Shown here: positions 5,501 to 37,155 of the stretch, piece by piece | Layout: each line of letters opens with the position of its first letter | How positions within the stretch are numbered: position 1 is the first letter of the stretch | Origin: an uncultured Alphaproteobacteria bacterium | GTDB lineage: Bacteria; Pseudomonadota; Alphaproteobacteria; HIMB59; GCA-002718135 | Direction of reading: 5' to 3' | Length of the DNA stretch: 64,000 bases | Assembly: GCA_902553945.1 (NCBI GenBank) | Contig: CACDMT010000001.1 | Span: 7,239-71,238 of the forward strand | Program-made: the position numbers and the translations under genes | Notes under the pieces: generated by a model | The model's database searches: none | Told to the model about the DNA's origin: nothing | Seen by the model: the letters and a program-made list of their open reading frames with translations, nothing else

Positions 5501-6520
5501 TTATAGATTGCTTACAGAAAATGAATAATCTGAATAAAGGGGTTTATCTTTAAAAAGTTTTATACTAGTTGCTACATTTCTTTTAGATATCGGATTTTCT
5601 TTATTCAAAGAAATATGCGTTGATAGTCCAAAAGCAGATGAAATTGGTTCAAAACCAACTGTTACATGATTGCTATTCCATGGATATTCTGTTCTGCCTT
5701 TATTACTAACCCACATAAGCACTGAAGAAAAATGATCAGGATTCCATGAAAAATTAAATTTGTAATTATCTTCAAAATTCTCAAAAGACATATTGCCATC
5801 AATACCACAAAGCTGAAAGAGGTCTTCAAAGTTTCCTTCAAATGGTGGTTTTGAGATATCTATGATATTTCCATTAAATCCTTCAACTTTTTCTAATGTA
5901 GAAAATTCTTTCCCTACAGCTCCTAATGTTTTATCTTTTAAAACTAATCCTGGATAGTTAAGTCCAAATTTAAAATTACCTGGATTTATTTTTATTTTTG
6001 ACATTTTTTTTGGTATGCGTAGCATCGGATGCAAACCAATTGGTAATTCACAATCCTCTTTTACATGTATTTGAAGTGTGCAAAATATTTTATTAGGCTT
6101 GTCATCCTGAACTTGAATAGTTCTTACTAGAAAATTAACTAAATCGTTTTCAGGATAATGTATTTTAAATTCTAGTTTATTTGATTCTTTTTCTATTAAT
6201 TCCCAATTTTTATTTGAGCTATAACCATGTGGTTCATTTACAATGTATGGTTCTTCTGAATATGATTTTTCCCATTCTTTAGTAAGTGCTTCAACAGGAG
6301 AATTAATCCCAAAAGGAACACATGGGAATTCCCCTTTAAGGTTTTGAAGTATACCTGGAAGTGAATTAAATTCTTCTGAATTATCTTCAAGCCACTCAGG
6401 CTCATGAAGGGGTTTAATTTTTTTTCCGTCAAGATTGAATATGGGAATCATTTTACATCCCAATGTATCAACTTCAACTTCTCCACCTTTCCAATTAAGT
6501 AAAATTTTTTCAGCCATCAA
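5501..6520 (-). CDS. Divergent galactose-mutarotase-fold (aldose-1-epimerase-like) protein
   Basis: 339 aa. Spaced motifs PHGYSSNKNWEL, GLHPMLR and VGFEPISS resemble the HG..W / HP.F / EP pattern of aldose epimerases. Assignment is by eye only. Confidence 0.4.
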   Translation of the reverse strand: MMAEKILLNWKGGEVEVDTLGCKMIPIFNLDGKKIKPLHEPEWLEDNSEEFNSLPGILQNLKGEFPCVPFGINSPVEALTKEWEKSYSEEPYIVNEPHGYSSNKNWELIEKESNKLEFKIHYPENDLVNFLVRTIQVQDDKPNKIFCTLQIHVKEDCELPIGLHPMLRIPKKMSKIKINPGNFKFGLNYPGLVLKDKTLGAVGKEFSTLEKVEGFNGNIIDISKPPFEGNFEDLFQLCGIDGNMSFENFEDNYKFNFSWNPDHFSSVLMWVSNKGRTEYPWNSNHVTVGFEPISSAFGLSTHISLNKENPISKRNVATSIKLFKDKPLYSDYSFSVSNL

Positions 6521-23257: not shown

Positions 23258-23689
23258 ATGGATATTAAGTTTATTGAAACACCAAGCCCCATTGGAAATT
23301 TTGTTAATGCAAGGTTGAGCGGTAAATATGCTTATATATCTGGTCAAGGACCATTTGATGATAATGGAAATTTAATAACTGGAAAAGTTGGAAAAGATTT
23401 AAATCAAGAAGAAGCATATGATGCTGCAAGAAGAGTTGGAATTACTATCCTATCAGTAATTAAAAATGATATTGGTTTTGAAAAAGTAAAAAAAGTTGTC
23501 AAAATACTTGGGTTGGTTAATTGTACGGTAGATTTTTTAACCCAACCAAAAGTTATAAATGGTTGTTCTGATTTATTTGTTGAATTTTTTGGCAAAGAAA
23601 AGGGCATGCACGCAAGAAGTGCTATGGGTGTTTATGTTTTGCCCAATAATATACCAGTAGAAATTGAAGCAATTATAGAATTAGTCTAA
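23258..23689 (+). CDS. RidA/YjgF/UK114-family reactive-intermediate (enamine/imine) deaminase
   Basis: 143 aa. YISGQGP, ARSAMGV..LP..IPVEIEAI C-terminal signature of the family. Confidence 0.8.
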   Translation: MDIKFIETPSPIGNFVNARLSGKYAYISGQGPFDDNGNLITGKVGKDLNQEEAYDAARRVGITILSVIKNDIGFEKVKKVVKILGLVNCTVDFLTQPKVINGCSDLFVEFFGKEKGMHARSAMGVYVLPNNIPVEIEAIIELV

Positions 23690-24889
23690 CCAACCAAGCC
23701 ATTCTTTTTTTGATTTAGCAAGATACTCATCCAAAGATATATTACTTTTAATTTTTTTTAAAATTAGATTATTAATAATTTTTTTAAATTCTAACATTAC
23801 AATTTTTTCCTGACCTTTTTTTAAATTACATGTATCCAACTCAAAGTGATTAAAGTGGATCAAATCATCACGAACAAAAATTGCTGGATCATTTTTTTCT
23901 AAATGAAATGCCAAGGATTGGATCGTATATTGGGATTTTTTTGAGTCAACATAAATTCTAAGTCTATTAATTTTATTACCTGTTGGGTCAGCAACAACCT
24001 CAAAAGAGATACCTTTAAATTTTTCTTTAGACAAAAATTTCAACCAATATTGTAAAATGTTATTTTGATTATTAATTTCTAAATCCCAATTTCTGTTATA
24101 CCAATTTTCAACACCAATTATTGCAGAATAAATAGATTCTTTACCTACTTTCATACCTCTACCAATACCTAAATTTTGAAGATAAATGTTTTTGATAAAT
24201 TTTTTCTTACCTGCAATTATTCCAGCTGTTAAAGATCCCATAAATTTATGTGCACTAAAAATTGCAACATCAGCACCAATTTTAAAAAAATCTTCCATAT
24301 ACTCCTCTGATGCTGCATCAATAATAACAGGTATTTTATTTTTTTTGCAAATTTTAATGAAAGAATTTAATTCTAGTGAATCATAATCAGAACAATGATG
24401 TGATACAACGTACATAGCACAAGCAATTTGTTTTTTATTTTTTGAAATTGTTTTTTCAATATTTTCTATCGTACAAAATTTTTTAAAACCACATTTTAGT
24501 ATCTTGGCACCAGAAAGTTTAATTCCCTGCTCTACTTCAGCTCCATAATTTGTAAGATGACCTCTTTGAATTAAAACTTTATTTACCATATTATTGGTGT
24601 CTGGAAGTTTAAAAACTTTCTTTAGATCTTTACCAGTCATCATACTGGCAACACTTTCTGTTAGCCCCCCAGCTGCAGAAGCAGTAATGACGGCAGCTTC
24701 TGTTTTAAGTAATTTAGAAATTCTTTGTGATGCTAAAGCTTGCAATTCATCTATATTAACAAAATATTCAAAAATATCATTAGCAGCTTTAATCGATTTT
24801 TTATTGGTAATTGAAGCACCAATTTTTGTCATAAATCCACTGACATTGATGACAGGTGTAAGATTATTTTTATTATAAAAATTTTTCAC
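23681..24889 (-). CDS. SelA-like PLP-dependent enzyme (DgaE / D-glucosaminate-6-phosphate ammonia-lyase-like, COG1921)
   Basis: 402 aa. PVINVSGFMTKIGAS N-terminus and FSAHKFMGSLTAG (S-x-x-K-x-x-G PLP-lysine context as in SelA). No tRNA-binding N-domain. 3' end overlaps the convergent RidA gene by 9 bp. Confidence 0.6.
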   Translation of the reverse strand: MKNFYNKNNLTPVINVSGFMTKIGASITNKKSIKAANDIFEYFVNIDELQALASQRISKLLKTEAAVITASAAGGLTESVASMMTGKDLKKVFKLPDTNNMVNKVLIQRGHLTNYGAEVEQGIKLSGAKILKCGFKKFCTIENIEKTISKNKKQIACAMYVVSHHCSDYDSLELNSFIKICKKNKIPVIIDAASEEYMEDFFKIGADVAIFSAHKFMGSLTAGIIAGKKKFIKNIYLQNLGIGRGMKVGKESIYSAIIGVENWYNRNWDLEINNQNNILQYWLKFLSKEKFKGISFEVVADPTGNKINRLRIYVDSKKSQYTIQSLAFHLEKNDPAIFVRDDLIHFNHFELDTCNLKKGQEKIVMLEFKKIINNLILKKIKSNISLDEYLAKSKKEWLGWLD

Positions 24890-24943: not shown

Positions 24944-26113
24944 ATGAAAATTACTGATGTAGAAACATATGTTCTTTTAGCGGATAACTATGATCCAAGT
25001 CTAACATCTTCAGCTCAAGATACATGTTTGGTAATTATAAAAACAGATGAAGATATAGAAGGTTATGGTGAATGTGATACTAGTCCTTGGGTTGCAAAAG
25101 CTTTTATTGAATCTCCTGGCACTCATACGATGGATCAATGTGTAAAAGAAATTTTGATTGGCTCAGATCCTCTTGATATAGATACATTGTGGGAAAAAAT
25201 TTATGTGGGATCAGCAATGACAGGTAGAAGAGGTGCTGGAGTAAATGCAATTAGTGCAATTGATATGGCGCTTTGGGATATAAAAGGCAAAGCCGAAAAC
25301 AAACCTGTATTCGAATTGTTAGGTGGAAAAAAACAAGAAGAGGTAATTCCCTATGCTTCACTTCAACCTGTTGGACATTCCTTTCAAGAATATAAAGACT
25401 CACTTGTTGCTTGGGCAGAAAAAGCAAAGGGTTTAGGTTTCAAAGCAGTAAAATCAGAAGTAACACTTAACGGACCTTATGCACATAGTGGTCTTCACGA
25501 GGAAGATGATAAAACAACTGAAGTTGTTGCTGCAGTAAGAAAAGCTTTAGGTCCAGAAATTAAATTAATGATTGATGTGCAGTATAGATGGAAAAATGCA
25601 GAAGAAGCTCTTCGTACAGTCAAGGACTGGGCAGAATATGATATTTATTTTTTAGAAACACCTGTTTGGACAGATGATATAAAAAGTTATGCAAGGATGC
25701 ATGATGAAGCGCCAATGAAAATAGCTGCTGGAGAATGGTTAAGTACAAGATATGAATTTGAAGATTTAATTATTAATGGAAAGATTGATGTAGCACAACC
25801 TGATGTTGGAAGATGTGGTGGATTGAGTGAAGCTAAAAAAATAGCAAAATTTTCGCAAGAACATAAAAGGATCATCGTTCCACATTGTTGGAAAACTTCT
25901 GTTTCTATTTCTGCTACAGCTCATTTTGCATTCAATACTGAAAATTGTGCATTTATAGAATATTTGCCACCACAACTTTGTGTTGAAATTTTGCGAAAAG
26001 AACTTGCAACTGAGGGTTTTGATTTTGTTAATGGAAAAATAACACCTCCTACAAAACCAGGTCTTGGCATAACTCTAAATAGGGATGCTATAAAAAAATA
26101 CCAAGTAGCTTAA
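24944..26113 (+). CDS. Enolase-superfamily acid-sugar dehydratase (MR/MLE family), paralog 2
   Basis: 389 aa. ALWDIKGKAENKPVFELLGG, MIDVQYRW / FLETPVW / IAAGEW metal-ligand contexts, AQPDVGRCGGLSEA and VPHCW. Confidence 0.85.
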   Translation: MKITDVETYVLLADNYDPSLTSSAQDTCLVIIKTDEDIEGYGECDTSPWVAKAFIESPGTHTMDQCVKEILIGSDPLDIDTLWEKIYVGSAMTGRRGAGVNAISAIDMALWDIKGKAENKPVFELLGGKKQEEVIPYASLQPVGHSFQEYKDSLVAWAEKAKGLGFKAVKSEVTLNGPYAHSGLHEEDDKTTEVVAAVRKALGPEIKLMIDVQYRWKNAEEALRTVKDWAEYDIYFLETPVWTDDIKSYARMHDEAPMKIAAGEWLSTRYEFEDLIINGKIDVAQPDVGRCGGLSEAKKIAKFSQEHKRIIVPHCWKTSVSISATAHFAFNTENCAFIEYLPPQLCVEILRKELATEGFDFVNGKITPPTKPGLGITLNRDAIKKYQVA

Positions 26114-26982
26114 TTTAAAATTTTAAACTCAACAGCTGCTTCAAAAGATTTCTTAGGATTTAAGATTTTTAATCCGTGATAAGCTTTACTATTTTTCATG
26201 ACTAAGAAAGAGTCTCTAATATTAGTAACCGGCTCAATGCAAAAAAAATTTTCTCTAGGTGGAGAATAAACATGAAGATTTCCAACATTTTTTTTATTAA
26301 TAATTTCTAATTTAATATGTTTATTTAAAATCAATTTTGACCTTCCATTCCATTTAAGAAAAGTTTCATCAATTTTTGTTTTATTCAAATCAAGACTTTT
26401 ACTGTTTATCATTTCTTTTATATTAAATTTATTTATCTTTGTTTGATTTAAATAAGAAAATGTATTTGAGAATATTTTTGAATCTTTACTAATGGTAAAC
26501 CAAGGATGAAACCCAATTCCACAATGAAACTTTGATTTATCTAAGTTGATAATCTTTAATCTAATAATTAATGAGTCTTTAGTAAGATTAAAAGTTTGTA
26601 TAGACTGATACTTGAAAGGAAAACTATTTTTACCATTATGTAAAAATTCTAAAACTAAAATATTTTTAGTATTTTTTTTTACTTTCCATTTATTAACCCA
26701 ACCTTCACCATGTATTGTATCAGGTTCAAGTATATGTGTTCTAGGTAAATTAATATATTTATCTTTATAAAAAAAAGTTTTTTTATGAATTGCACCAAAA
26801 TAAGGAATGGTCGCAAAATAACCAGAAAAATAACAATTATATTTTCCTTGTCTCTTTTTAAGTGGAAAACTTCTAAAAATATTTGTTTTCTTTTCTTTAT
26901 CAATAAATCTTAAGATACTTGCTCCCATATTTGGAGATATCTCCAAAAGTAGTTTTTTATTTTCTAAAATTTTTTGCGACAT
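26110..26982 (-). CDS. Aldose 1-epimerase (galactose mutarotase) family protein
   Basis: 290 aa. HGEGWVNKW, GIGFHPWF and FCIEPVT motifs match the epimerase HG..W / HP.F / EP pattern. TAATG junction with the upstream gene. Confidence 0.7.
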   Translation of the reverse strand: MSQKILENKKLLLEISPNMGASILRFIDKEKKTNIFRSFPLKKRQGKYNCYFSGYFATIPYFGAIHKKTFFYKDKYINLPRTHILEPDTIHGEGWVNKWKVKKNTKNILVLEFLHNGKNSFPFKYQSIQTFNLTKDSLIIRLKIINLDKSKFHCGIGFHPWFTISKDSKIFSNTFSYLNQTKINKFNIKEMINSKSLDLNKTKIDETFLKWNGRSKLILNKHIKLEIINKKNVGNLHVYSPPRENFFCIEPVTNIRDSFLVMKNSKAYHGLKILNPKKSFEAAVEFKILN

Positions 26983-27854
26983 TAAGATATTTTATAATTA
27001 CTATAAGGGATTTTCAATCCTTTATAATTTGTTTTTATTATTAAACTTTGACCTGAATATTTATATTTTTTTTGTAAAATTTTAGAAGTACCCAATTTTG
27101 CAGTTGTAATAAATAGATAATTTAACTCTTTACCAAAAAATGTGATGCTAGTTATATTATATGCTGGTAATTTTATTTCTTTATCAATTTTTTTAGTTTT
27201 TAAATCAATTCTTGTAATTTTAGCACCAGACCAATGTGCTACCCACAATCCATTATTATTATCAAGAGCTATTCCATCTGGTATTCCTTGATTTTTTTTA
27301 TACTTAATCAAAATATTTTTTTTGTTAGTTTTTAAATTATAAGTTAAAATTTTTGAACTTAACGAGTCCGAAAAATATAAATTTTTTTCAAATTTATCTA
27401 ATGCCGGTCCATTTGATACTTTAAATCCCCTGTCAATAACTATAAATTTTTTCTTATATAAATATCCAAAATATCCTAAATTTTTATTTTCTTTAAGATG
27501 AGACAAACCGATCCACAATTTTTTATCTGAAATTAAACCATCATTGTAAGAAATATTTTTTAATTCATTACTTTTTCTAATATCAATAAATTTTTTTACT
27601 TTTTTAGATTTTCTATTAAATATATATAATCCATCAAAAGCACTTATTATAAATAATCCATTATTATGTGGGTATACATTTCCTAGAGGCTTTGGTAGAT
27701 CAAGTTTTTGTTGAGTTAATTTTCTATTTCCAATTGAATAAAAAAAAATTGATGGTTTTAAAAGATCTAAAAAAACAATCTCATTAGTTTTGTAAAGATA
27801 AAAACCACTCTCTCCTAAAATAGTATTGGACTCAACAGCATCAAAATCAAACAT
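26982..27854 (-). CDS. SMP-30/gluconolactonase/LRE-like lactonase (copy 2, extremely AT-rich)
   Basis: 290 aa. SNGPALD, PDGIALDNNNGLWVAHWSGAKITRID propeller-blade motifs. Confidence 0.65.
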   Translation of the reverse strand: MFDFDAVESNTILGESGFYLYKTNEIVFLDLLKPSIFFYSIGNRKLTQQKLDLPKPLGNVYPHNNGLFIISAFDGLYIFNRKSKKVKKFIDIRKSNELKNISYNDGLISDKKLWIGLSHLKENKNLGYFGYLYKKKFIVIDRGFKVSNGPALDKFEKNLYFSDSLSSKILTYNLKTNKKNILIKYKKNQGIPDGIALDNNNGLWVAHWSGAKITRIDLKTKKIDKEIKLPAYNITSITFFGKELNYLFITTAKLGTSKILQKKYKYSGQSLIIKTNYKGLKIPYSNYKIS

Positions 27855-27863
27855 ATAATAAAT

Positions 27864-27902
27864 TAAAAAAATAAAAAGAGGGCGTTAAATAAGCGCCCTC
27901 TT
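27864..27902 (-). terminator. Rho-independent terminator/attenuator after the PotD-like binding-protein gene
   Basis: 9-bp GC-rich stem aagagggcg (27876-27884) / cgccctctt (27894-27902) with a 9-nt loop. On the minus strand it is followed by TTTTTATTTTTTT (27864-27875). Confidence 0.65.
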
Positions 27903-27918
27903 AATAAAATAATAAATT

Positions 27919-28926
27919 TTAATTAGAAGCTTTTACTTCGTTCCAAACTCTATTACGCCATTCGAAATCCTCAGCTGGTTGTAGCCAATTTAATCTACCT
28001 GCATAATCTAAGCCAGGAGACTCATGAGTAACAGTTCCATATCCATATCTCTCATTCATTACTTCTTGAGTAGATTTTTCTATGAAAAAATTTGCCCAAG
28101 CGTGTGCAAGTTCTTCATCAGCACCTGCAGTCATTGCCCAAGTATCAAGCCATCCAATTCCACCTTCTTTAGGAATAATGTATTTAACATTATGTCCCAT
28201 ATCTCTTAGAGCCACTTCCTGGAATTCACCCATAGAGAACATTAGTGAAATTCCTCCACTATCCCATATTTGATTACCTTCATCAAAACCAGCAAAGTAA
28301 GTAACTACTAATTTTTTTTGATCAATCAGCGTTTGTTTTACATTTTCCATTTCAGCTTCAGATAAGTTATAAGGATTGTTCATACCAAGGTATATTGCTG
28401 TATTAACAATATTATTATTAGTATCATCTAATACAATCATTTTACCTGCATTTGCTGGATCGTGCATTACAGACCATGAGTCAACTCCGCCTTCACCAAA
28501 TTCATCAACATCATAAATTAGTCCTAATGAACCCCAAGAAATAGGAACACCATAATAACCGCCATCAATTTCAACTTCTTTTACGTTTTGAAAAGCTGAC
28601 ATAAGACCACTAAAATTACTTAACTTACTTTTGTCATAAGGTTTTAGTAATCCTGCTCCATGATATCGTGGAAATAAACTTGTATCAATTGATACTAAAT
28701 CAAAATCTTCACCCTTACTTGCTTGTGTTAAAGCAAATAATTCATCAACACTTCCAACATATTTAACTTTAACTTTTGCATCATATTTAGCTTCAAATTC
28801 ATCTATCCATTCTTGTTCAGCATATCCTTCAAAACACCCAAGGCTTAATTCTCTTGCAGCGCTTGCAGAAAATGCAAACGAAAAAATAAAGATAAATGAT
28901 AAAATTGAATAAATAAATTTTCTCAT
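27919..28926 (-). CDS. Periplasmic binding protein of the PotD/PotF (polyamine-type) family
   Basis: 335 aa with signal peptide MRKFIYSILSFIFIFSFAFSASA. GYYGVPISWGSLGLIYD and GWLDTWAM segments typical of spermidine/putrescine-type SBPs. Confidence 0.8.
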   Translation of the reverse strand: MRKFIYSILSFIFIFSFAFSASAARELSLGCFEGYAEQEWIDEFEAKYDAKVKVKYVGSVDELFALTQASKGEDFDLVSIDTSLFPRYHGAGLLKPYDKSKLSNFSGLMSAFQNVKEVEIDGGYYGVPISWGSLGLIYDVDEFGEGGVDSWSVMHDPANAGKMIVLDDTNNNIVNTAIYLGMNNPYNLSEAEMENVKQTLIDQKKLVVTYFAGFDEGNQIWDSGGISLMFSMGEFQEVALRDMGHNVKYIIPKEGGIGWLDTWAMTAGADEELAHAWANFFIEKSTQEVMNERYGYGTVTHESPGLDYAGRLNWLQPAEDFEWRNRVWNEVKASN

Positions 28927-29113
28927 TTTCCCTCCATATATAAATTTTTATAATTAAAGCAGTAATTTAAATTGAAGTCAAATTAACAATCGTTGATTTA
29001 GATATAAAATATATATTTATTCATAAAATTAGGCAATAATTGGCTTTTTTAAGTTTATTTAAAAAATATTAATCTATAAATTATGATTAGTATTAAAATT
29101 CAATATAAATATT

Positions 29114-30181
29114 ATGAGTGAAATTTTAGAGTTAAAAAATGTTTCAAAACAATATGGAGAGACAAAAGTTTTAGATAATATTAATTTTAAAATTAATAAT
29201 AATGAATTCTTTACAATTTTAGGATCAAGCGGATCAGGTAAGTCTACAATAATACGAATGATAGGTGGTTTTACAAAACCTTCGGCAGGTGAAATAATTT
29301 ATGAGAATAATATTATTAACGATGAACCAATTTTTAATAGACCATTTAACACAGTATTTCAAGATTACGCATTATTTCCAAATATGAATGTTTTTGATAA
29401 TGTTGGATTTGGACTTAAAATAAAAAATATAAATAAAGGTGAGATAGAAAAAAAAGTCTTAGATGTTTTAGCAGTTGTAGGCTTAGAAAATTTTTCAAAA
29501 AGAATGCCTCAAGAATTATCAGGAGGCCAACAACAACGAGTTGCACTGGCAAGAGCTATTATTTGTGAACCTAAAATTATTTTATTAGATGAACCCCTTG
29601 GTGCTCTTGATGCAGAATTACGAAAACAAATGCAATTATTTTTAAAAGAAATTCAGAAAAAAATTCAAATTACTTTTATATTTATTACTCATGATCAAGA
29701 AGAGGCTATATTTTTATCAGATAGAATAGCCGTCCTAAATAAACATAAATTTGAACAAATAGGTTCGCCAAAAGATTTATACTATTCACCACAAACAACC
29801 TATATGGCAAAATTTTTTGGAGAATGTAATTTAATTAATTGTAGTGTCATTAATGAAGATTCAAAATCTGTAAAAGTTAGCTCTAAATTTGGTAATTTTG
29901 TTATACCTAACAACGCTACTCTAAATCGTGATTTAGATTTTGTTTATGGAATTAGGCCTGAAGAAGTAAAACTAGTAGCTAAAAATGAAAATAGTATGAG
30001 GGTCAAAATTAGAGATATAAGCTTTAAAGGATCTACATCAACAATTAATGCAACAAATGAAAATGAAGATGCGTTATTAAAGATTCAGAATATTAGTTCA
30101 AATATTTCACAATCATTATCTGTAGGCACCTATATTGATGTTGAATTTAATACTGAATTTGGAAGTATTTTTACTGAATGA
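29114..30181 (+). CDS. ABC transporter ATP-binding protein (PotA type)
   Basis: 355 aa. Walker A GSSGSGKST, LSGGQQQR, ILLDEPLG, C-terminal TOBE-like domain. Confidence 0.9.
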   Translation: MSEILELKNVSKQYGETKVLDNINFKINNNEFFTILGSSGSGKSTIIRMIGGFTKPSAGEIIYENNIINDEPIFNRPFNTVFQDYALFPNMNVFDNVGFGLKIKNINKGEIEKKVLDVLAVVGLENFSKRMPQELSGGQQQRVALARAIICEPKIILLDEPLGALDAELRKQMQLFLKEIQKKIQITFIFITHDQEEAIFLSDRIAVLNKHKFEQIGSPKDLYYSPQTTYMAKFFGECNLINCSVINEDSKSVKVSSKFGNFVIPNNATLNRDLDFVYGIRPEEVKLVAKNENSMRVKIRDISFKGSTSTINATNENEDALLKIQNISSNISQSLSVGTYIDVEFNTEFGSIFTE

Positions 30182-31029
30182 ATTCTATATCAAATTATTT
30201 TAATACATCTATCTGGACAATAGTTAGTTTTGTCTTAGTTATTTTTTTAATTCTAATACCTCTTGCTTCTTTTTTATCTTATTCTTTTTTCACAGTTGAT
30301 GGGACAGATATTATTCATGAATTTAGTTTATTTAATTTTAAAGAATTTTTTGTTGATGAAATATATATACGTACTTTCGTAAGAACTATTTTTCTTGCAA
30401 TTATTGTAATGACATGTTGCATCATACTTGGCTACCCTGTTGCATTTTTTTTAGCTAGATATGCCGGTAGATATAAGTATGCCATTCTTCTGATGCTCAT
30501 AATTCCACTTTTTATGAGCTACATAATTAAAATTTACATGATGAGATCGATATTGGGTTATTCTGGACTAATCAATAAAGTTCTAGCAATGGCAGGTTTA
30601 ATTGATAAACCACTAGAATTTTTTTTATGGAATCAAAATTCAGTTATTATAACACTTGTTATAATTTTATTGCCTTTAATAATTATTCCAACTTTTACTT
30701 CTTTGGATAAAATTCCACAAAATATAGTTGAGGCATCTTTTGATTTAGGGTGTAAACCCTTTCAAGCTTTTAAATATATTATATTGCCAATTAGTTTCCC
30801 TGGTCTTGTTGTAGGAAGTATTTTTGTATTTATTTTAGCTCTTGGTGATTTCGTAACACCTCAGTTAGTTGGTGGTACATCAGGATTTACTTATGGTAAA
30901 ATAATATACAGTAATTTTGGGATGGCATTTAATTGGCCATTTGGTGCAGCACTTGCTAGTGTTTTATTATTTGTGTCTGTAATTATTATTTTATTAACTA
31001 ATTATCTAACTAAAAGATTGAACAAATGA
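30178..31029 (+). CDS. ABC transporter permease (PotB type)
   Basis: 283 aa, 6 TM segments, EAA-type loop EASFDLGCKPFQAFKYIILPISFPG. ATGA overlap on both sides. Confidence 0.85.
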   Translation: MNSISNYFNTSIWTIVSFVLVIFLILIPLASFLSYSFFTVDGTDIIHEFSLFNFKEFFVDEIYIRTFVRTIFLAIIVMTCCIILGYPVAFFLARYAGRYKYAILLMLIIPLFMSYIIKIYMMRSILGYSGLINKVLAMAGLIDKPLEFFLWNQNSVIITLVIILLPLIIIPTFTSLDKIPQNIVEASFDLGCKPFQAFKYIILPISFPGLVVGSIFVFILALGDFVTPQLVGGTSGFTYGKIIYSNFGMAFNWPFGAALASVLLFVSVIIILLTNYLTKRLNK

Positions 31030-31826
31030 CCAGATCAGAAAATTACACTAAATATCTTTTAGCTTGTTTAACTGGTTTAATAGTAGCTGCATTATATGCA
31101 CCAATAGTTTTAACAATCTTTTATTCTTTTTATAAATCAAGAAAAGGAAAGGTGGACTGGGGTTCTTTTTCTTATGAGCCATATACAAAATTAATATTTG
31201 AAAGACAGATATTAGAATCCTTAATGAACTCAATTTATGTGGGTGTGGTCACAGTAATTTGTTCTGTAATTATTGGTTTTTATTTTGCAAACTATTACCA
31301 TACGAGTAAAAGCAAAATGAAAGAATTTTTGCAGTTTATTATCTTTCTTCCCTTTTTATTACCACCAATTATAACAGGTTTATCACTCCTGATATTTTTT
31401 AGAGAAATAAATCTTCCAAGATCCTTAAATACTGTTGTAATTGGTCATACAATATTTGTTCTAGCAATAGTATTTAAAATTATTTTAAATAAGTTAGAAA
31501 CTCTTAAACCTTCTTTAATGGAGTCTGCGTACGATTTAGGAGCAAGTAAATGGCAGGCATTTTATTATGTTTTACTTCCAAACATTAAATTATCTCTAAT
31601 AATAGCAGGACTTTTAGCATTTACTATTTCATTAGATGAAACTTTAATCACATTATTCTTGATTGGAAATGACACTACTTGGCCAATAAAACTCTGGGCA
31701 AAAATGAGGGTAGGATTTTCTAAACAAGTCAATGCTTCAGTAACATTAATATTGATACTAACATCATTATTAGTATTATTAATAGCAAGTATAATATCAA
31801 GATCTGAAAGAAAAATAATGTATTGA
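31026..31826 (+). CDS. ABC transporter permease (PotC type)
   Basis: 266 aa, EAA-type loop ESAYDLGASKWQAFYYVLLPNIK. Confidence 0.85.
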   Translation: MTRSENYTKYLLACLTGLIVAALYAPIVLTIFYSFYKSRKGKVDWGSFSYEPYTKLIFERQILESLMNSIYVGVVTVICSVIIGFYFANYYHTSKSKMKEFLQFIIFLPFLLPPIITGLSLLIFFREINLPRSLNTVVIGHTIFVLAIVFKIILNKLETLKPSLMESAYDLGASKWQAFYYVLLPNIKLSLIIAGLLAFTISLDETLITLFLIGNDTTWPIKLWAKMRVGFSKQVNASVTLILILTSLLVLLIASIISRSERKIMY

Positions 31827-31830
31827 TACA

Positions 31831-32604
31831 ATGGATAAAAGATTATTAAATAAAAAAATAGTTGTTACTGGTGGCTCTAGAGGAATAGGGGCCGGCATTG
31901 TGAAAAGACTTTTTGATGAAGGTGCTGAAGTAATCATAGCCGATATTAAAGAGGATTTAGCTAAAAAATTAATTGAAGATTTAGATACAAAAAAAGTAAC
32001 ATTCTTTCAAACTGACTTATCAGAAGAAAATGAAATAATTAAACTAATTGATTTTACTAAAAGTCACTGGGGCTCAATGGATATTTTGATTAATAATGCT
32101 GGTATAGAAGATGGTTTTATGTTGTCAGATCAATCGTATGAAAAATATAGAAAAACTATGAAAGTAAATTTAGATGCTCCATTTTTATGTTCAAAATACT
32201 CTCTCCCATTATTAGAAAAATCAAAGTCAGCAAGAATAATAATGATTTCATCTATTCAAGGTGTAAGAGGATACAAAGGCAATATTTCTTATAATACAGC
32301 TAAAGGTGGTCTTATAAATATGACCAGAGTACTCGCAGTAGAATTAGCAGAAAAAAATATACTTGTTAATTCAGTTGCTCCAGGTTTTATAAATACGCCA
32401 ATGTCTGTAATGAAAGATGGAAATTTAGAGTGGGATACAGATTGGTTTAAGGATGTATATCTTAAATATGGAAAATTGCCTATGGGTAGATATGGTCATC
32501 CAGATGACATTGCAGGTGCTGTCTATTTCTTTTGCTCAGAGGATAGTAAATATGTAACAGGTCAGACTTTACTTGTTGATGGAGGTGTTTCAGTTACTTT
32601 TTAA
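31831..32604 (+). CDS. Short-chain dehydrogenase/reductase (SDR)
   Basis: 257 aa. TGGSRGIGAG, NNAG, YNTAKGG (YxxxK). Starts 4 bp after the potC-like stop. Confidence 0.85.
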   Translation: MDKRLLNKKIVVTGGSRGIGAGIVKRLFDEGAEVIIADIKEDLAKKLIEDLDTKKVTFFQTDLSEENEIIKLIDFTKSHWGSMDILINNAGIEDGFMLSDQSYEKYRKTMKVNLDAPFLCSKYSLPLLEKSKSARIIMISSIQGVRGYKGNISYNTAKGGLINMTRVLAVELAEKNILVNSVAPGFINTPMSVMKDGNLEWDTDWFKDVYLKYGKLPMGRYGHPDDIAGAVYFFCSEDSKYVTGQTLLVDGGVSVTF

Positions 32605-32606
32605 AT

Positions 32607-33743
32607 ATGAAAATTACAAAAATAGAAGTTCATGTAGTTGGCCCTGAAGATGAGCGCTACACTTGGTCAGAAGATATTGAAGAAGTATATCAAAGTAACA
32701 CTTTAATTAAAATTTATACTGATGAAGATATTATAGGAGAGGCAGCTGTATGGAATGCAACATATTTTGAGTATGATAAGTATACCGCTGAGTCACTTAG
32801 ACATTTACTGCCAATATTAATTGGAAAGGATCCTCTTAACAGAGAAGAAATACTTTATGAAATAAGACCTAGGGTTTTTCCTCAGCCACCTGGTGCGCAA
32901 GCTTTAATTGATTGTGCGTTATGGGATATTATCGGAAAAAAAAGCAAAACTCCAATTTATAAAATTCTTGGAGGAAGAAGAGATAAAATTAAATCATATG
33001 CAAGTACAGTAATGTATGACACTATTGATCAATACTTAAAGGTAGTAGAAGATATGAAAGAAAAAGGTTTTTCTGCTGTTAAGTTTCATACCTATTGTAT
33101 TCCAAAAAAAGATTTAGAGTTAGCTGAAGCTGCAAGGAAAGCATTTCCTTCTATGTCTTTTATGATTGATGCTGAAAATAATTATGACTTAGAAAGTTCA
33201 ATTTATGTAGCAAAAAAATTAGAAAAACTTGACTTTACATGGTTTGAAGCTCCTTTACCGGATTATGATTTTGCGGGATATAAAAAAATTACAGATAGTG
33301 TTGGAATAAAAGTTATTCCATCAGGCAATTGGGTTCTTGACCTTCAAAGATTTTCAGAAGCAATTAATAATAAAGTTTGGTCGGCAACAAGAACTGATAT
33401 GGCAATGATGGGAGGAATAACTAATTGTAAAAAAGCTATGGATTTATCAGCGGCCGGAGGCCTTGATTGTGAAATTATGTCATGGGGATACACATTAGTA
33501 TCTGTTGCAAATTTACATGTTATGTTATCATCCGATAATTGCACATATTATGAACAACCTTTACCATACAATAATTTTGAGTTTGGTATGAAAGATGTTT
33601 TAAGAACAAATAAAGATGGGTATATCTATGCTCCAACTAAACCTGGCTTAGGTATGGAAATTGATTGGGAAAAAATGAATGAAAAAATTATTCATTCAAT
33701 TTATTGTAATGATGGAAGAAATATTAGCAATGTTCATTCATGA
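32607..33743 (+). CDS. Enolase-superfamily (MR/MLE family) protein, paralog 3, with atypical active-site positions
   Basis: 378 aa. ALWDIIGKKSKTPIYKILGG, MIDAENNY and WFEAPLP ligand contexts are conserved. The third-ligand context reads PSGNW and the His context reads EIMSW (see finding). Confidence 0.75.
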   Translation: MKITKIEVHVVGPEDERYTWSEDIEEVYQSNTLIKIYTDEDIIGEAAVWNATYFEYDKYTAESLRHLLPILIGKDPLNREEILYEIRPRVFPQPPGAQALIDCALWDIIGKKSKTPIYKILGGRRDKIKSYASTVMYDTIDQYLKVVEDMKEKGFSAVKFHTYCIPKKDLELAEAARKAFPSMSFMIDAENNYDLESSIYVAKKLEKLDFTWFEAPLPDYDFAGYKKITDSVGIKVIPSGNWVLDLQRFSEAINNKVWSATRTDMAMMGGITNCKKAMDLSAAGGLDCEIMSWGYTLVSVANLHVMLSSDNCTYYEQPLPYNNFEFGMKDVLRTNKDGYIYAPTKPGLGMEIDWEKMNEKIIHSIYCNDGRNISNVHS

Positions 33744-33778: not shown

Positions 33779-34186
33779 ATGAAAATAATTATGATTTATT
33801 TATTTATATGCTTTCTTTTAATGACTAATTATAGTTATTCATCAAATCATATAAAAAATTATAAATGTAAAATAAATTTTAGTACTAGTATAAAAAACAT
33901 ATCCCCTCTTGAAATGTCAGCTCCAAAAGAAATTAAAATTAAATATAACTCGGAAACAAATAGTTTAGTTGAATATATTTGGAATTATGAGAGTGTTATT
34001 AATGACTTTGAATTAATGAATAATAAAAGTAATTCAGAATTTATTGAAATAGCTCGTAAAGGATTTAAAAAAACTTTATCTAATAAAGATATAAGAAATG
34101 GAATATATTTTAAGTTATATTTTAATGATTTAAAAGCTAATCTAAGTAAGCAATTTATTAGACCTGTTAACTATAAATGTTTCTAG
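33779..34186 (+). CDS. Small secreted hypothetical protein
   Basis: 135 aa with a predicted signal peptide (MKIIMIYLFICFLLMTNYSYS). No family recognised. Two Cys only, each within an NYKC motif. Confidence 0.4.
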   Translation: MKIIMIYLFICFLLMTNYSYSSNHIKNYKCKINFSTSIKNISPLEMSAPKEIKIKYNSETNSLVEYIWNYESVINDFELMNNKSNSEFIEIARKGFKKTLSNKDIRNGIYFKLYFNDLKANLSKQFIRPVNYKCF

Positions 34187-34192
34187 TTTTTA

Positions 34193-35035
34193 TTAAATTT
34201 TGTAAATTCTCTTTGCATTCATATTCGCAATTTTAGACGACTCATCAGATGAAAGGTTTGATAAAATTTTTTTTGTTACAATTAGCCATTCGGGTAAACC
34301 CTTACCAAGATCAACTACAGGCCAATCACTTCCCCAAACTATTCTGTTAGGTCCAAAACTATCTAATACATGATCAACATAAGGCTTAATAGTTTCGTAA
34401 GATGAGGTGCCTGGTGCACAATAAGCCATTAATCCAGATAGTTTACAAGTTACATGATCTAATTCTGAAAGAGCATTAATATCTTTTTTCCAGTCATCAA
34501 TATTACCATTTGCAATTGCAGGGACTCCACAATGATTTAAAACTAAATCCATCTCATCACATGATTTGGACAATTCATAAGCAATTTTTAGTTGACCAGC
34601 ATGATAGCACAAATCAAAAGGTTTTCCTTCTTTGCCAATTTTTTTTACATTTTCCTTAAAAATGCTTTGTTGAGATAGTTCATCAGGCATAACATGAAGT
34701 ACTCTTCTATAACCTACTACTCCAAGTGATTTGGATTCATCTAGCCACTGATCAAATTCATTACTTTCCTCTGGCCTAATAGATAAAATTAATCCTTTTA
34801 TTCCATTTTCTGATTTAGACATTAGTGAATTAATAAATTTTGATTCATTTTTATAATCAGGATCATCAACAGCACACTCCATAAATAATGTTCCCATTAT
34901 ATTAAAGTCCTTTGTTAAATCTTGATAATTTTCGACTGTGAAGTCAGAACTTGACAGAGCAGGTATATCTTTAGCCCAACTATAATTTGCTTCTTTTCTA
35001 TATATTAAGTGCTGATGTGTATCTAATAATTCCAT
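34193..35035 (-). CDS. Amidohydrolase_2 family metal-dependent hydrolase (L-fucono/rhamnono-lactonase-like)
   Basis: 280 aa. N-terminal DTHQHL metal motif, LNHCG, and WGSDWPV C-terminal motif typical of amidohydrolase_2 sugar lactonases. Confidence 0.7.
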   Translation of the reverse strand: MELLDTHQHLIYRKEANYSWAKDIPALSSSDFTVENYQDLTKDFNIMGTLFMECAVDDPDYKNESKFINSLMSKSENGIKGLILSIRPEESNEFDQWLDESKSLGVVGYRRVLHVMPDELSQQSIFKENVKKIGKEGKPFDLCYHAGQLKIAYELSKSCDEMDLVLNHCGVPAIANGNIDDWKKDINALSELDHVTCKLSGLMAYCAPGTSSYETIKPYVDHVLDSFGPNRIVWGSDWPVVDLGKGLPEWLIVTKKILSNLSSDESSKIANMNAKRIYKI

Positions 35036-35082: not shown

Positions 35083-37155
35083 TCATACTTCAATATTTTC
35101 TAATTTTTTATCATTTAATTTATTGTGTACGATAATTTCAAATGCTTTTTCTAAATTTGATACATATTTTTTTGTATTAAATAAATTAGAGTTACTAATA
35201 TTAATTTTAACTTGTTCTTTAATTTTACTTAATTTTGTCCTATCTTTTAAAAGCTCAAAAATTAGATTCTCATATTGTTTTGCATCTGTGGTTATTAAGT
35301 TTTTCATATTAAATGAATTTAAAAGACTTGCACCAACTCTTGAAGAAAAACTTTTTCCTATTTTAGTTATAACCGGTAATCCACTATACAAAGAATCTAC
35401 AATTGACGTATGGCCATTATAGTTAAAAGTATCTAAGTATATGTCGCCAATACTGTGCCTTCCAAGATGTTCTTGATTATTAATATAATTTAAAAATTTA
35501 ATTTTTTTTATATCCACATTTCTTTTATTTGCTTCATGCTGTAAATTTTTTTTAATTTCATCATTCTCTACTAATAATATAAGATAACAATTGTTTAATT
35601 TATTTATGATCCGTGCCCAAATATCAAATTCTTCTGGAGATATTTTATAAGAGTTATTGAAACAGCACAAAACTAAGGAGTCTTTTGAAATTCCTAATGT
35701 ATTCCTTGTAACTATTGATGTAGAAATTTTTCTTTCATTAAATGTTGGATAGTAAGTATCAGGCATAAATATAATTTTTTCTGAAAAACATTTTATATTT
35801 TCATTTGGTATTACAATCTTATCAGCTAAAATATAGTCAATAAAATCAAGACCAGTGGTACCTGGATATCCCAAAAAACTTAATTGCAATGGAGCAGCTC
35901 TATAAGAAAATATATTAGATCTTGAATTTTGACTATGTCCATTTCTATGAATAGCAATGTCTATGTCATGTCTTCTTGATAAATCTGCAATTTGATTATC
36001 ATTCATATCAGCTACGTAAAAAAAATTATCAAAATATTCTTTTATTCTAAAATGAGTTTTATCTTTTTTTTGGTATCCATAATCAAACCCATAAACTTCA
36101 TATTTATCTTTATTGTGATATTTAAAAATTCCTTCCATATTTATCATACCAGCATGCTCAAAAAAATCTGGAGTAAAATAACCTATACGTATTTTATTTT
36201 TTTTCTTAATTTTTATATTTTCATCTGAAGTTTTAAATTTACTTGAATAATTATATGCTCTTTTCAACTCTAAAAATGGGTCATCATCAATTGATAATAA
36301 CTGCCAAGGTGTAGCTTCAATGCATGATTCAGTTATTTCTTTAATATTTTTTTTGCTCTTATCAAAATTTGTCCAATCACAGATTTTTCTCTCTATGTAC
36401 ATCATTTGAACATAGGATTTTAAAAATTTAGGGTTTTTTTTAATTATTTTTTTAAAATAACTTAATGATTTAGAATAATTTTTATCTTCTAGTTCTAAAA
36501 CACCTAAATTGTGATTAGCTTCATAATACTCTGGGTCTAAAGTTATTGCATTTGATAAATATTTTTTTGCAAATTCTTTTTCTTTTAACTTTATGTAAAG
36601 AGCTCCTAAATTATTGTATGCTTTTAAATAAAATTTATTTAAATCTATAGATTTTTTATAGTGATTTATAGATGAATCATTTTCTCCAATTATAGAATAT
36701 ACAATTGCAAGATTATAATGTGCAATCGAGAAATTATTATTTATTTTAATTGCTAGTTTATAATTTTGAATACTTAAACTATATAAATTTTTTTCCTGGT
36801 AAATTATACCAAGGTTAAAATATCCATCATAGTTTTTTGAATTTAATTTTATTGACTCTAGGAAACTTTCTTTAGCTTCATCATATTTGCTCAATAATAA
36901 TTGACTTTTACCCAAGTTATTAAAATATTCATAATTTTTATTATCTAAATTAATAGCTATTTTATAAAATTTAATAGCCTCCTTGTTTTGATTTTTTTTT
37001 GAATAAGATGCTCCAATAAGATTGGGTAATATTGATAATTTTTTATTTTCCTTAAATAGATTTGATGATTGAGAAATTACTTCATCAAAATTTTTATTTT
37101 CAAAAAGTTTAATTAAATATAATATTTGTTGGTCAATTTTAGAAATTTCTGACAT
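35083..37155 (-). CDS. TPR-repeat protein with C-terminal O-GlcNAc-transferase-like (SPINDLY/GT41) domain
   Basis: 690 aa. The N-terminal ~260 aa are 34-residue TPR repeats (AIKFYKIAINLDNKNYEYFNNLG and similar). The C-terminal half has IRIGYFTPDFFEHAGM and FLGYPGTTG motifs like GT41. Confidence 0.7.
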   Translation of the reverse strand: MSEISKIDQQILYLIKLFENKNFDEVISQSSNLFKENKKLSILPNLIGASYSKKNQNKEAIKFYKIAINLDNKNYEYFNNLGKSQLLLSKYDEAKESFLESIKLNSKNYDGYFNLGIIYQEKNLYSLSIQNYKLAIKINNNFSIAHYNLAIVYSIIGENDSSINHYKKSIDLNKFYLKAYNNLGALYIKLKEKEFAKKYLSNAITLDPEYYEANHNLGVLELEDKNYSKSLSYFKKIIKKNPKFLKSYVQMMYIERKICDWTNFDKSKKNIKEITESCIEATPWQLLSIDDDPFLELKRAYNYSSKFKTSDENIKIKKKNKIRIGYFTPDFFEHAGMINMEGIFKYHNKDKYEVYGFDYGYQKKDKTHFRIKEYFDNFFYVADMNDNQIADLSRRHDIDIAIHRNGHSQNSRSNIFSYRAAPLQLSFLGYPGTTGLDFIDYILADKIVIPNENIKCFSEKIIFMPDTYYPTFNERKISTSIVTRNTLGISKDSLVLCCFNNSYKISPEEFDIWARIINKLNNCYLILLVENDEIKKNLQHEANKRNVDIKKIKFLNYINNQEHLGRHSIGDIYLDTFNYNGHTSIVDSLYSGLPVITKIGKSFSSRVGASLLNSFNMKNLITTDAKQYENLIFELLKDRTKLSKIKEQVKINISNSNLFNTKKYVSNLEKAFEIIVHNKLNDKKLENIEV

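Follow-up and report, generated by a model that had tools for sequence, protein, structure and literature searches.

A PotABCD-type importer encoded in the marine HIMB59/AEGEAN-169 lineage has probably moved off polyamines and probably takes up a free reducing monosaccharide for oxidation by enzymes whose genes are linked to its own. The system lies in a 64,000-nucleotide stretch of DNA analyzed as a whole (here, the window). We infer the ligand class and all biochemical steps from the observed gene content, fold, residue substitutions, and synteny. A neutral aldose would be the simplest fit as the ligand, and a fucose-, arabinose-, or rhamnose-like sugar is a weak guess. If the system is a sugar importer, ocean surveys that tally it among polyamine transporters would be in error; its homologues are labeled spermidine/putrescine binding proteins in JGI annotation.

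The tie between transporter and enzymes, proposed in an earlier note on this DNA, was borne out by synteny kept in >50 species of Alphaproteobacteria, Chloroflexota, and Trueperaceae. Among 58 species-level representative loci from lineages other than HIMB59, the gene for the binding protein (SBP) was accompanied by both permease genes in all 58, by ATPase and SDR (short-chain dehydrogenase) genes in 56 each, and by an enolase-superfamily gene in 55. In 53 loci, the enolase gene came immediately after the SBP gene and before the ATPase gene. A GntR regulator was present in 43 loci and an SMP-30/SGL lactonase in 34. The modal order, SGL (divergent), GntR, SBP, eno1, ATPase, permease, permease, SDR, was seen again when genes were called and given Pfam labels. 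When all ORFs at these loci were clustered without bias, no further family recurred except a 350-aa protein with no Pfam assignment and a second enolase. The association is far beyond chance, and since the importer is linked to sugar-oxidizing enzymes in so many species, it is most likely a sugar importer.

In the window, all nine genes, the TAATG stop/start overlap of the lactonase and epimerase genes (read in the sequence), the gaps of 4 bp (potC-like gene/SDR) and 2 bp (SDR/second enolase) derived from coordinates, and a hairpin after the SBP gene were found where the earlier note had placed them, and the gene labels agreed with Pfam and NCBIfam assignments. The span given there, from position 26110, was right in its gene positions but too short, as the conserved module reaches 24944. 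The transport genes on the + strand encode a potA-like ABC ATPase (29114 to 30181; PF00005 and a C-terminal TOBE_2, PF08402), a potB-like permease (30178 to 31029; BPD_transp_1; best NCBIfam match PotB, 1.4e-51, below cutoff), and a potC-like permease (31026 to 31826; BPD_transp_1; best NCBIfam match PotC, 4e-40, below cutoff). The ATPase is 41 to 48% identical to that of the conserved operon, and its best NCBIfam matches are PotA-type (355 to 369 bits, below cutoffs).

An enolase-superfamily protein (32607 to 33743, + strand) had been stressed as a partner enzyme. The conserved partner of the SBP, judged by identity, is instead eno1 (24944 to 26113, + strand; MR_MLE_N/C domains), 52 to 64% identical to the enolase encoded directly 3′ of the SBP gene in loci L001, L002, and L006. 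The other protein is only 24 to 27% identical to the conserved enolases, has Asn at the third metal-ligand position and no beta7 His, and matches PDB entry 4jhm best (5e-85), followed by the Agrobacterium "isomerase/lactonizing enzyme" 1rvk/4hcd (2e-38). It accompanies the module almost solely in HIMB59 relatives and, on this distribution, is a lineage-specific HIMB59 add-on. Eno1 is a predicted aldonate dehydratase: in NCBIfam it comes closest to dehydratases of galactonate, gluconate, and arabinonate (none reaching the cutoff), its best PDB match is 3sjn (5e-69), and its invariant residues comprise the D/E/E metal ligands and a His/Asp dyad (His of PHCW and Asp of QPD). A betaine or other non-sugar substrate, raised previously as an alternative, is unlikely: eno1 scores best against acid-sugar dehydratases, lactonase, mutarotase, and SDR genes accompany it, and the SBP does not belong to the betaine-binding type.

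The remaining enzymes are an aldose 1-epimerase (mutarotase; 26110 to 26982, − strand; PF01263, E = 2.7e-20), 56 to 92% conserved in HIMB59 relatives; an SMP-30/SGL (gluconolactonase-family) lactonase (26982 to 27854, − strand; PF08450, E = 4.5e-42), with Caulobacter 7plb and regucalcins as distant PDB matches; and the SDR (31831 to 32604, + strand; adh_short_C2, E = 1.1e-58). The SDR, with a score of 221.5 against a cutoff of 215, qualified for the NCBIfam subfamily "glucose 1-dehydrogenase," is 39 to 44% identical to the SDR ending the conserved operon, and is predicted to be an NAD(P)-dependent aldose 1-dehydrogenase. Mutarotase, C1 dehydrogenase, and lactonase activities all require the anomeric center to be free, so the ligand would be a free reducing sugar, and import of a sugar acid is unlikely.

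In the route that we propose, the secreted SBP would bind the sugar in the periplasm and dock on the PotB/PotC-like permeases, with the PotA-like ATPase powering uptake. In the cytoplasm, the aldose 1-epimerase would equilibrate the anomers, the SDR would oxidize C1 to give a lactone, the SMP-30 lactonase would convert the lactone to an aldonate, and eno1 would dehydrate the aldonate to a 2-keto-3-deoxy acid. The core operon has no steps beyond this acid, which counts against the reading; the pyruvate-yielding steps would be encoded elsewhere, and the window, which is a sugar island with two more sugar ABC systems and an L-rhamnose mutarotase, contains a PfkB kinase and a KDPG-type aldolase (1460 to 2912). 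On Phaeobacter plasmid pDOK1-1-2, the module gains a second SDR and a FAH-family (fumarylacetoacetate-hydrolase) hydrolase, the pair with which non-phosphorylative sugar routes of the diketo-hydrolase kind are known to end; these two could replace the kinase and aldolase. On Rhizobium pRL12, a homologous SBP with identical pocket residues neighbors FucU/RbsD, an aldo-keto reductase, an amidohydrolase, and a UxaA-type dehydratase; judging from these genes, the same pathway logic reappears there with unrelated enzymes.

The SBP (27919 to 28926, − strand; SBP_bac_8 and SBP_bac_6 domains) has a signal-peptide-like N terminus and a PotD/PotF/YdcS-type fold with a remodeled pocket. The top Foldseek matches of its AlphaFold2 model (pLDDT 90.4) were YdcS, PotD, and PotF (probability 1.0), and its NCBIfam scores for all three fell far under the cutoffs. 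The Pot-family label applied earlier to the importer holds in that Pot proteins are the best matches, but the resemblance is distant, with all components below NCBIfam cutoffs (PotD, 61.8 bits versus 582; PotA, 355 versus 482; PotB, 176 versus 348; PotC, 138 versus 326). The polyamine-binding residues, to which the earlier note had drawn attention, are changed at 7 of the 12 mapped spermidine contacts of PotD. The five that are kept (Tyr37, Asp168, Trp255, Asp257, and Tyr293) are invariant in the SBP family; the changes include Thr35→Glu as well as Glu36→Gly, Glu171→Asn, Trp229→Ser, Tyr85→Ser, and Ser83→Asp, the last five invariant in 30 family members. With Glu36, Glu171, Trp229, and Tyr85 lost, the suggestion that the importer probably serves neither spermidine nor putrescine gains support. 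The mapped pocket has four acidic residues and no basic residue at the contact positions, although this mapping covers the contact positions, and an Arg or Lys may lie elsewhere in the pocket.

Such a pocket would suit a cationic ligand too, and it is possible, if unlikely, that the ligand is an amino sugar (glucosamine, galactosamine, or fucosamine type) whose ammonium is held at the retained PotD Asp/Trp spot. The polyamine-nitrogen anchors, Asp168, Trp255, Asp257, and Tyr293, are invariant together with Tyr37, and the aliphatic-chain box of PotD is now Ser, Asn, and Asp; however, acid-rich pockets with a stacked Trp are also normal in neutral-sugar binders, e.g., maltose-binding protein. 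In this route, the SDR and lactonase would produce a 2-amino-2-deoxy-aldonate, eno1 would take the alpha proton and eliminate the 3-OH, and enamine/imine hydrolysis, RidA aided where present, would give the 2-keto-3-deoxy acid and ammonium. Enolase-superfamily enzymes do act on alpha-amino-type substrates (cis-3-hydroxy-L-proline dehydratase and 3-methylaspartate ammonia-lyase), but we know of no enolase-superfamily 2-amino-aldonate dehydratase. In HIMB59, eno1 lies divergent to genes for a DgaE-family PLP ammonia-lyase and RidA, a DgaE-like/RidA pair lies ~4 kb upstream of the module in 11 alphaproteobacterial species, and two aminotransferases are encoded near the Rhizobium SBP gene, the class IV one overlapping its start. 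In locus L088, however, this pair is part of another operon, that of a CUT1 transporter, which a toxin-antitoxin pair cuts off from the module, and no deaminase, aminotransferase, or other amine-removing gene recurred in the core operon across the 58 species.

It is improbable that the ligand is a sugar acid, a betaine, or a sugar-amine conjugate (opine-like or Amadori), the last two also suggested in the earlier note, and that the enolase catalyzes epimerization or racemization instead of dehydration. Osmolyte binding by a PotD-annotated SAR11 protein (PMC11485210) is in favor of this reading, as is the presence in the structural cluster of the SBP of the Agrobacterium mannopine-family opine binders MotA (mannopine and mannopinic acid) and AgtB (agropinic acid). 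The carbohydrate-derived ligands of these two proteins indicate that the PotD-cluster scaffold is not restricted to polyamines and, together with the ligands of AfuA from the same cluster, also favor the sugar importer reading. The MotA and AgtB ligands are sugar-amino-acid conjugates, though, and the operons of these proteins carry opine enzymes and not the module's combination of mutarotase, dehydrogenase, lactonase, and dehydratase. Both proteins are also remote (profile E = 1e-10; Foldseek identity, 14 to 17%), no amadoriase, deglycase, oxidase, or demethylase recurred with the module, the mapped contacts offer no basic partner for a carboxylate, and a conjugate would not present the free anomeric center required by the enzymes. 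An ordinary polyamine importer, as auto-annotated, with unrelated sugar-gene neighbors is very improbable: all four transport components find their closest families among Pot proteins and the JGI label concurs, but scores lie far under equivalog cutoffs throughout, the altered contacts include Glu36 and Glu171, an enolase gene separates the SBP and ATPase genes in 53/58 species, and no polyamine-catabolic gene recurred with the module.

Compared with Escherichia coli PotABCD/PotFGHI (PDB 1pot, 1a99, and 8y5h), the putative sugar importer shares the SBP fold (Foldseek probability, 1.0; TM, 0.6 to 0.8), the four-component layout, TOBE_2 on the ATPase, and permeases closest to PotB and PotC. It differs in SBP identity (~20 to 22%), in SBP scores that amount to no more than about 10% of the equivalog cutoffs, and in its position in a sugar-oxidation operon, not among polyamine genes. 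E. coli YdcS, the SBP of YdcSTUV (PDB 6nlp), is the closest solved structure (profile, 5e-39; Foldseek, 2.5e-24) and has the GW-D motif in common with the SBP, but it is 22% identical and lacks the family's EGY, DTS, DDxNN, and GEFQ motifs; to our knowledge, no connection of YdcS with sugars is established. Actinobacillus pleuropneumoniae AfuA (PDB 4r72 and 4r73), in the same structural cluster, binds sugar phosphates (glucose-6-phosphate in 4r73) but at first carried an iron-binder annotation, a precedent for a family name that misleads on ligand class. Its ligand is anionic and phosphorylated, unlike that proposed here, and identity is 18 to 20%.

The enzyme set resembles oxidative aldose routes (L-fucose in Xanthomonas/Burkholderia, L-rhamnose, Weimberg/Dahms, and diketo-hydrolase), which likewise combine a mutarotase, an NAD(P) dehydrogenase, a lactonase, and an enolase-type dehydratase; the Phaeobacter module adds the 4-dehydrogenase and FAH hydrolase of the diketo-hydrolase routes. 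No module enzyme reached the NCBIfam equivalog cutoff for a known substrate, which counts against the reading. The described non-phosphorylative aldose pathways use CUT1/CUT2 ABC, MFS, or TRAP transporters, and we know of none with a Pot-type importer. That marine oligotrophs oxidize sugars by non-phosphorylative routes with paralogous enolases is established (PMC10444878), and marine SAR202 and AEGEAN-169 are known for the oxidative sugar theme (PMC10444878, PMC11366302). The published AEGEAN-169 fucose operon differs in having an aldo-keto reductase and an amidohydrolase instead.

One feature of the window counts against the sugar importer reading: the SBP gene is divergent from the ABC genes and has a terminator 3′ of it. 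The terminator-like hairpin noted previously just 3′ of the SBP stop codon (27865 to 27902 with its U-tract, − strand) was confirmed by fold energy (−15.4 kcal/mol; z = −4.57), by shuffling (0/200 shuffles as stable), and by the U-run next to it. It has a G+C-rich 9-bp stem and a 9-nt loop (~27876 to 27902); a terminator consensus scan gave no match at this hairpin solely because the loop exceeds 8 nt. With this arrangement, SBP transcripts would probably exceed those of the lactonase and epimerase. The AT-rich 187-bp region between the SBP and potA-like genes (28927 to 29113), the presumed site of the promoters, contained only weak AT-rich palindromes, no convincing operator, and promoter-like matches no commoner than in shuffled sequence.

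Downstream of the second enolase gene lies a gene for a 135-aa protein (33779 to 34186, + strand) with a hydrophobic, signal-peptide-like N terminus; it had no match in a Pfam search and is 70% conserved in locus L008. Convergent with the operon is an Amidohydrolase_2 gene (34193 to 35035, − strand; PF04909, E = 1.7e-33), which also adjoins the module in HIMB59 relatives (63 to 67% conserved). Its product resembles L-fucono-1,5-lactonase (NCBIfam, 1.7e-30, under the cutoff) and may serve as an additional lactonase or isomerize a lactone.

The gene set between positions 26110 and 33743 of the window, which an earlier note had named and delimited from the sequence, was reproduced gene by gene in our ORF list. 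On the reverse strand are genes for an aldose 1-epimerase (26110 to 26982; Pfam Aldose_epim, 2.7e-20), an SMP-30/SGL lactonase (26982 to 27854; Pfam SGL, 4.5e-42), and an SBP_bac_8/SBP_bac_6 solute-binding protein (27919 to 28926; Pfam and NCBIfam), hereafter SBP. Divergent from these, the forward strand carries genes for an ABC ATPase with a TOBE_2 domain (29114 to 30181; ABC_tran and TOBE_2), two BPD_transp_1 permeases (30178 to 31029 and 31026 to 31826; Pfam and NCBIfam for both), a classical short-chain dehydrogenase (SDR) that scores above the NCBIfam subfamily cutoff for glucose 1-dehydrogenase (31831 to 32604), and an enolase-superfamily protein (32607 to 33743; Pfam and NCBIfam). The close packing described in the note, with a TAATG stop/start overlap between lactonase and epimerase and gaps of 4 bp before the SDR gene and 2 bp before the enolase gene, is present, as is a hairpin 3' of the SBP gene with a 9-bp G+C-rich stem and a U-run (-15.4 kcal/mol; 0 of 200 shuffles as stable). 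The SBP/potA intergenic region yielded no operator-like palindrome. The string of potABC-like, SDR, and enolase genes is closed by a gene for a 135-aa protein whose N terminus is hydrophobic and resembles a signal peptide (33779 to 34186). This protein matches no Pfam family, has a sole, subthreshold NCBIfam hit, and shows 70% conservation in L008, the closest relative.

The module lies in a sugar island at positions 1 to ~40 kb of the window, whose G+C content is ~28%. The island encodes one CUT2-type and one CUT1-type sugar ABC system, an L-rhamnose mutarotase, a PfkB kinase, a KDPG-type aldolase, three enolase-superfamily proteins, two SGL lactonases, and a DgaE-family PLP lyase with RidA; beyond 41 kb, housekeeping genes predominate among the window ORFs scanned.

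The SBP is predicted to have a bilobed periplasmic fold of the PotD type, since the top 30 Foldseek matches of its AlphaFold2 model (pLDDT 90.4) were all YdcS, PotD, PotF, or SpuD/E (probability 1.0; TM up to 0.80). Its N terminus resembles a signal peptide. The SBP scored below the equivalog cutoffs of NCBIfam PotD (NF007048; 61.8 bits, cutoff 582) and PotF (NF007962; 59 bits, cutoff 636), and its top NCBIfam model was YdcS (78.3, cutoff 725), the E. coli protein of PDB 6nlp. The best NCBIfam matches of the ATPase and the two permeases were PotA, PotB, and PotC, respectively, all under the equivalog cutoffs. Judged from these scores, the name "Pot" is here merely a best-match label.

The pocket was read from sequence alignment to PotD alone, using contacts transferred by a profile alignment (with numbering checked against 8y5h) and by a separate MAFFT alignment; Q327 could not be mapped. 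We take the spermidine contacts of PotD to be W34, T35, E36, Y37, S83, Y85, D168, E171, W229, W255, D257, and Y293 (1pot literature), of which the SBP keeps 5 of 12. Tyr37, Asp168, Trp255, Asp257, and Tyr293 are invariant in the SBP family; Glu36 is replaced by Gly, Glu171 by Asn, and both Trp229 and Tyr85 by Ser. At the other positions, Ser83 is replaced by Asp, Thr35 by Glu, and Trp34 is either Phe or Trp. The aromatic box of PotD has largely given way to small polar residues. As these replacements are invariant or nearly so across 30 members with overall identities of 43 to 60%, the pocket appears to be under selection for a ligand that is not a linear polyamine. Together, the subcutoff PotD and PotF scores and the few contacts kept favor the proposal of the earlier note that spermidine and putrescine are unlikely ligands.

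Scanning a single genome for each species recovered 181 SBP relatives, of which the best 80 loci were analyzed; gene content was taken from tblastn with reference proteins and from all-against-all ORF clustering, and counts refer to the 58 of these 80 loci that lie outside HIMB59 and have sufficient flanking DNA. Both permeases were found at 58/58 loci, the ATPase at 56, the SDR at 56, the enolase at 55 (at 53 directly after the SBP gene), a GntR/FCD regulator at 43, and an SGL lactonase at 34. The gene linkage exceeds chance, and the association of transporter and enzymes that had been noted in the window is kept in related genomes. The commonest order at the 58 loci is SGL (divergent), GntR, SBP, enolase, ATPase, permease, permease, and SDR, and the same order is seen from independent gene calls and Pfam labels in Boseongicola, Devosia, Geminicoccaceae, and soil and other marine contigs. 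Most carriers belong to the Alphaproteobacteria; the others include Thermomicrobiales, further Chloroflexota, and one Trueperaceae genome. Cultured carriers are Roseibium album CECT 5095, Labrenzia sp. DG1229, Phaeobacter inhibens DOK1-1, Mesorhizobium sp. AR07, and Frigidibacter sp. ROC022. SBP genes with 95 to 97% identity occur in single-cell and metagenome assemblies labeled HIMB59, MarineAlpha5, or uncultured Alphaproteobacteria, which places the window in the marine HIMB59/AEGEAN-169 lineage. Apart from a second enolase type (~10 species) and a Pfam-less protein of ~350 aa (10 species), all-ORF clustering yielded no further recurrent families. The latter gene lies just after the SDR gene (L006:18365-19435, L089:16106-17215, and eight other loci). 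Its assignment as an aldose epimerase was rejected (hhalign probability, 0.2%); hhalign gave a weak hint of DUF4432 (probability, 26%), a family that holds the same position in Devosia.

The genes for the ATPase, two permeases, and SBP share one operon at 56 to 58 of the 58 loci. The divergent layout in the window is a HIMB59 rearrangement. An extra enolase paralogue, 41 to 48% identical to the product of the window gene at 24944 to 26113 (+), stands directly after the SBP gene in seven HIMB59 relatives (L009, L010, L011, L012, L014, L015, and L020) and is absent from the window, L008, and L013. Gene order near the SBP varies between close relatives, which indicates that the island rearranges often.

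The conserved enolase partner is not the one that the earlier note had singled out (32607 to 33743) but the orthologue of 24944 to 26113, which lies just outside the start of the region described there and is convergent with the epimerase gene. Its product, here eno1, shares 52 to 64% identity with the enolases encoded next to the SBP elsewhere. The metal ligands and the His/Asp dyad of eno1 are intact, and its highest scores are with galactonate, gluconate, and arabinonate dehydratases. The product of 32607 to 33743 shares only 24 to 27% identity with the conserved enolases. It lacks the beta7 His, carries Asn in place of the usual third metal ligand, and occurs with the module almost exclusively in HIMB59 relatives; its closest structure is the uncharacterized 4jhm, followed by the Agrobacterium "isomerase/lactonizing enzyme" 1rvk/4hcd. 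With eno1 as the query, thousands of marine homologues were recovered, none with an informative name. A 74%-identical copy in marine Chloroflexi (L093 and L094) has no Pot-like transporter alongside, and the enzyme is therefore common to distant marine oligotrophs independently of the transporter; for the same reason, the copy gives no clue to the substrate. It lies near an MFS transporter, an FAH-family hydrolase, and two SGL lactonases.

The standard oxidative route that converts a reducing sugar into a 2-keto-3-deoxy acid with no kinase step uses four enzymes: a mutarotase, an NAD(P) dehydrogenase, a lactonase, and an enolase-type dehydratase. Predicted enzymes of all four types are encoded together in the window, and an imported reducing sugar would pass through them in that order to yield such an acid. 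An oxidative enzyme route of this kind is already documented in marine oligotrophs (PMC10444878). On balance, the imported ligand is probably a neutral reducing sugar. Our strongest argument comes from an SBP homologue on plasmid pRL12 of Rhizobium ruizarguesonis (L007; 567568-592509), which has the same pocket residues but unrelated neighbors, the four roles being covered there by FucU/RbsD, an aldo-keto reductase, an amidohydrolase, and a UxaA-type dehydratase. That different protein families make up one and the same pathway logic points to a reducing sugar as the imported molecule. In this locus, the genes for FucU/RbsD, aldo-keto reductase, amidohydrolase, and a DUF1349 protein are divergent from the SBP gene, and the UxaA-type dehydratase is found nearby with a DHDPS-like protein, a DegT aminotransferase, and an aldehyde dehydrogenase. 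On Phaeobacter plasmid pDOK1-1-2, the operon is extended by a second SDR and an FAH-family hydrolase, a known ending that gives pyruvate and a short hydroxy acid. This ending, FucU in Rhizobium, and a fuconolactonase-like amidohydrolase at 34193 to 35035 of the window hint faintly at a fucose-, arabinose-, or rhamnose-like sugar. The PDB matches of the SDR and lactonase were at the generic level of FabG, regucalcin, and xylonolactonase, and none of the enzymes had an equivalog-level match to a fucose, rhamnose, xylose, arabinose, or galactose enzyme. The module is not the fucose operon described in part of AEGEAN-169, which comprises an aldo-keto reductase, a mandelate-racemase-type enzyme, an amidohydrolase, and a mutarotase (PMC11366302): the aldo-keto reductase and amidohydrolase set the two enzyme sets apart, and a GH29 fucosidase is present there. 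No GH29 was found among the window ORFs scanned against Pfam, a scan that took in all but a few short ORFs after 41 kb.

An amino sugar is a less likely ligand, and we regard it as doubtful. The PotD residues that anchor nitrogen are invariant in the SBP family, and the mapped contact positions are acidic, with no basic residue identified among them; one ammonium-binding Asp/Trp site would be kept, while the rest of the polyamine box would have turned into hydroxyl-binding residues. Also in its favor, the Rhizobium SBP gene start is overlapped by a class IV aminotransferase gene, and in HIMB59 the conserved enolase has a divergent pair of neighbors, a DgaE-family ammonia-lyase and RidA, which lie 55 bp from it in the window (PLP-dependent lyase, 23681 to 24889, -; RidA, 23258 to 23689, +). 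The RidA, lyase, enolase, epimerase, and lactonase block is kept in HIMB59 relatives (L011, L014, and L016). A similar lyase/RidA pair, in a set with an ATPase within a CUT1 sugar-transporter operon, occurs ~4 kb upstream of the module in 11 other, unrelated alphaproteobacterial species. However, in L088 (2940-5691) the pair is clearly part of another operon, that of the CUT1 transporter, and the core operon contains no amine-removing gene across the 58 species. The RidA/DgaE-like neighborhood may represent an amino-sugar-acid route next door. It is similarly improbable that the SBP family is the first on the PotD scaffold to be specific for amino sugars and its invariant enolase partner a deaminating 2-amino-2-deoxy-aldonate dehydratase, which would be a new kind of enolase-superfamily enzyme. 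If both were so, abundant marine oligotrophs (HIMB59/AEGEAN-169) and many roseobacters could obtain carbon and ammonium from dissolved amino sugars by a route that needs neither a kinase nor PLP.

Conjugates, betaines, sugar acids, and true polyamines share what probability a neutral sugar and an amino sugar leave. The betaine substrate that had been entertained earlier fits poorly, given enolases that score best against acid-sugar dehydratases and lactone cycloisomerase-like proteins, an SBP of PotD type, and the presence of a lactonase and a mutarotase; likewise, neither a racemase/epimerase-type enolase nor a betaine-type SBP, as in an HpbD-type system for betaine or amino acid derivatives, was found. 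A uronate or other anionic ligand was rejected because no basic residue was seen at the mapped pocket positions and a mutarotase is present. A MotA/AgtB-type opine importer was also rejected (AgtB, 1.4e-10 by profile; 14 to 17% identity by Foldseek; no recurring opine enzymes).

In layout, the importer agrees with PotABCD and TC 3.A.1.11, having a TOBE-domain ATPase, two separate PotB/PotC-like permeases, and a PotD-fold SBP. It would work in a like mode within the same broad family, but its SBP lacks the scores and contact residues of a polyamine binder. MotA and AgtB, whose ligands are opines, and AfuA, whose ligands are sugar phosphates, fall in the same structural cluster as the SBP; as these ligands are carbohydrate derived, a sugar ligand would be a plausible extension, with no break with precedent. 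To our knowledge, a simple monosaccharide or amino sugar would be new to the ligand range of polyamine/opine/phosphonate importers. Literature searches, including those on PotD-cluster and opine binders, uncovered neither a characterized member of the SBP family nor a publication on the operon, and an exact-sequence lookup of the window SBP returned no record. Searches for a functional study of 4jhm, 3sjn, 3mkc, 3nzg, or 3mqt, or of the gene combination, likewise found none. This compact, widely conserved system could help to assign functions to the 3sjn-like and 4jhm-like groups of the enolase superfamily, both uncharacterized.

AEGEAN-169 reconstructions count pot genes as polyamine transporters (PMC10308909, PMC11366302), whereas in SAR11 experiments a PotD-annotated protein bound osmolytes instead (PMC11485210). 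The module is likely a further, widespread case of a Pot-annotated system with a nonpolyamine ligand. Marine genome, transcript, and protein surveys routinely score Pot-like genes as polyamine transporters, and if this SBP family carries sugar, part of that signal would reflect carbohydrate use rather than use of nitrogen-rich polyamines. The outcome is well supported as a testable reannotation and introduces no new principle.

Two other features of the window were observed. A 339-aa ORF at 5501 to 6520, with no Pfam or NCBIfam match, lies between CoA_trans and family III CoA-transferase genes. Directly adjoining the sugar island, a gene at 35083 to 37155 encodes a 690-aa protein with TPR repeats and a GT41 (O-GlcNAc-transferase-like) domain; after it come an NAD-dependent epimerase/dehydratase-family gene and a galactose-1-phosphate uridylyltransferase-like gene.
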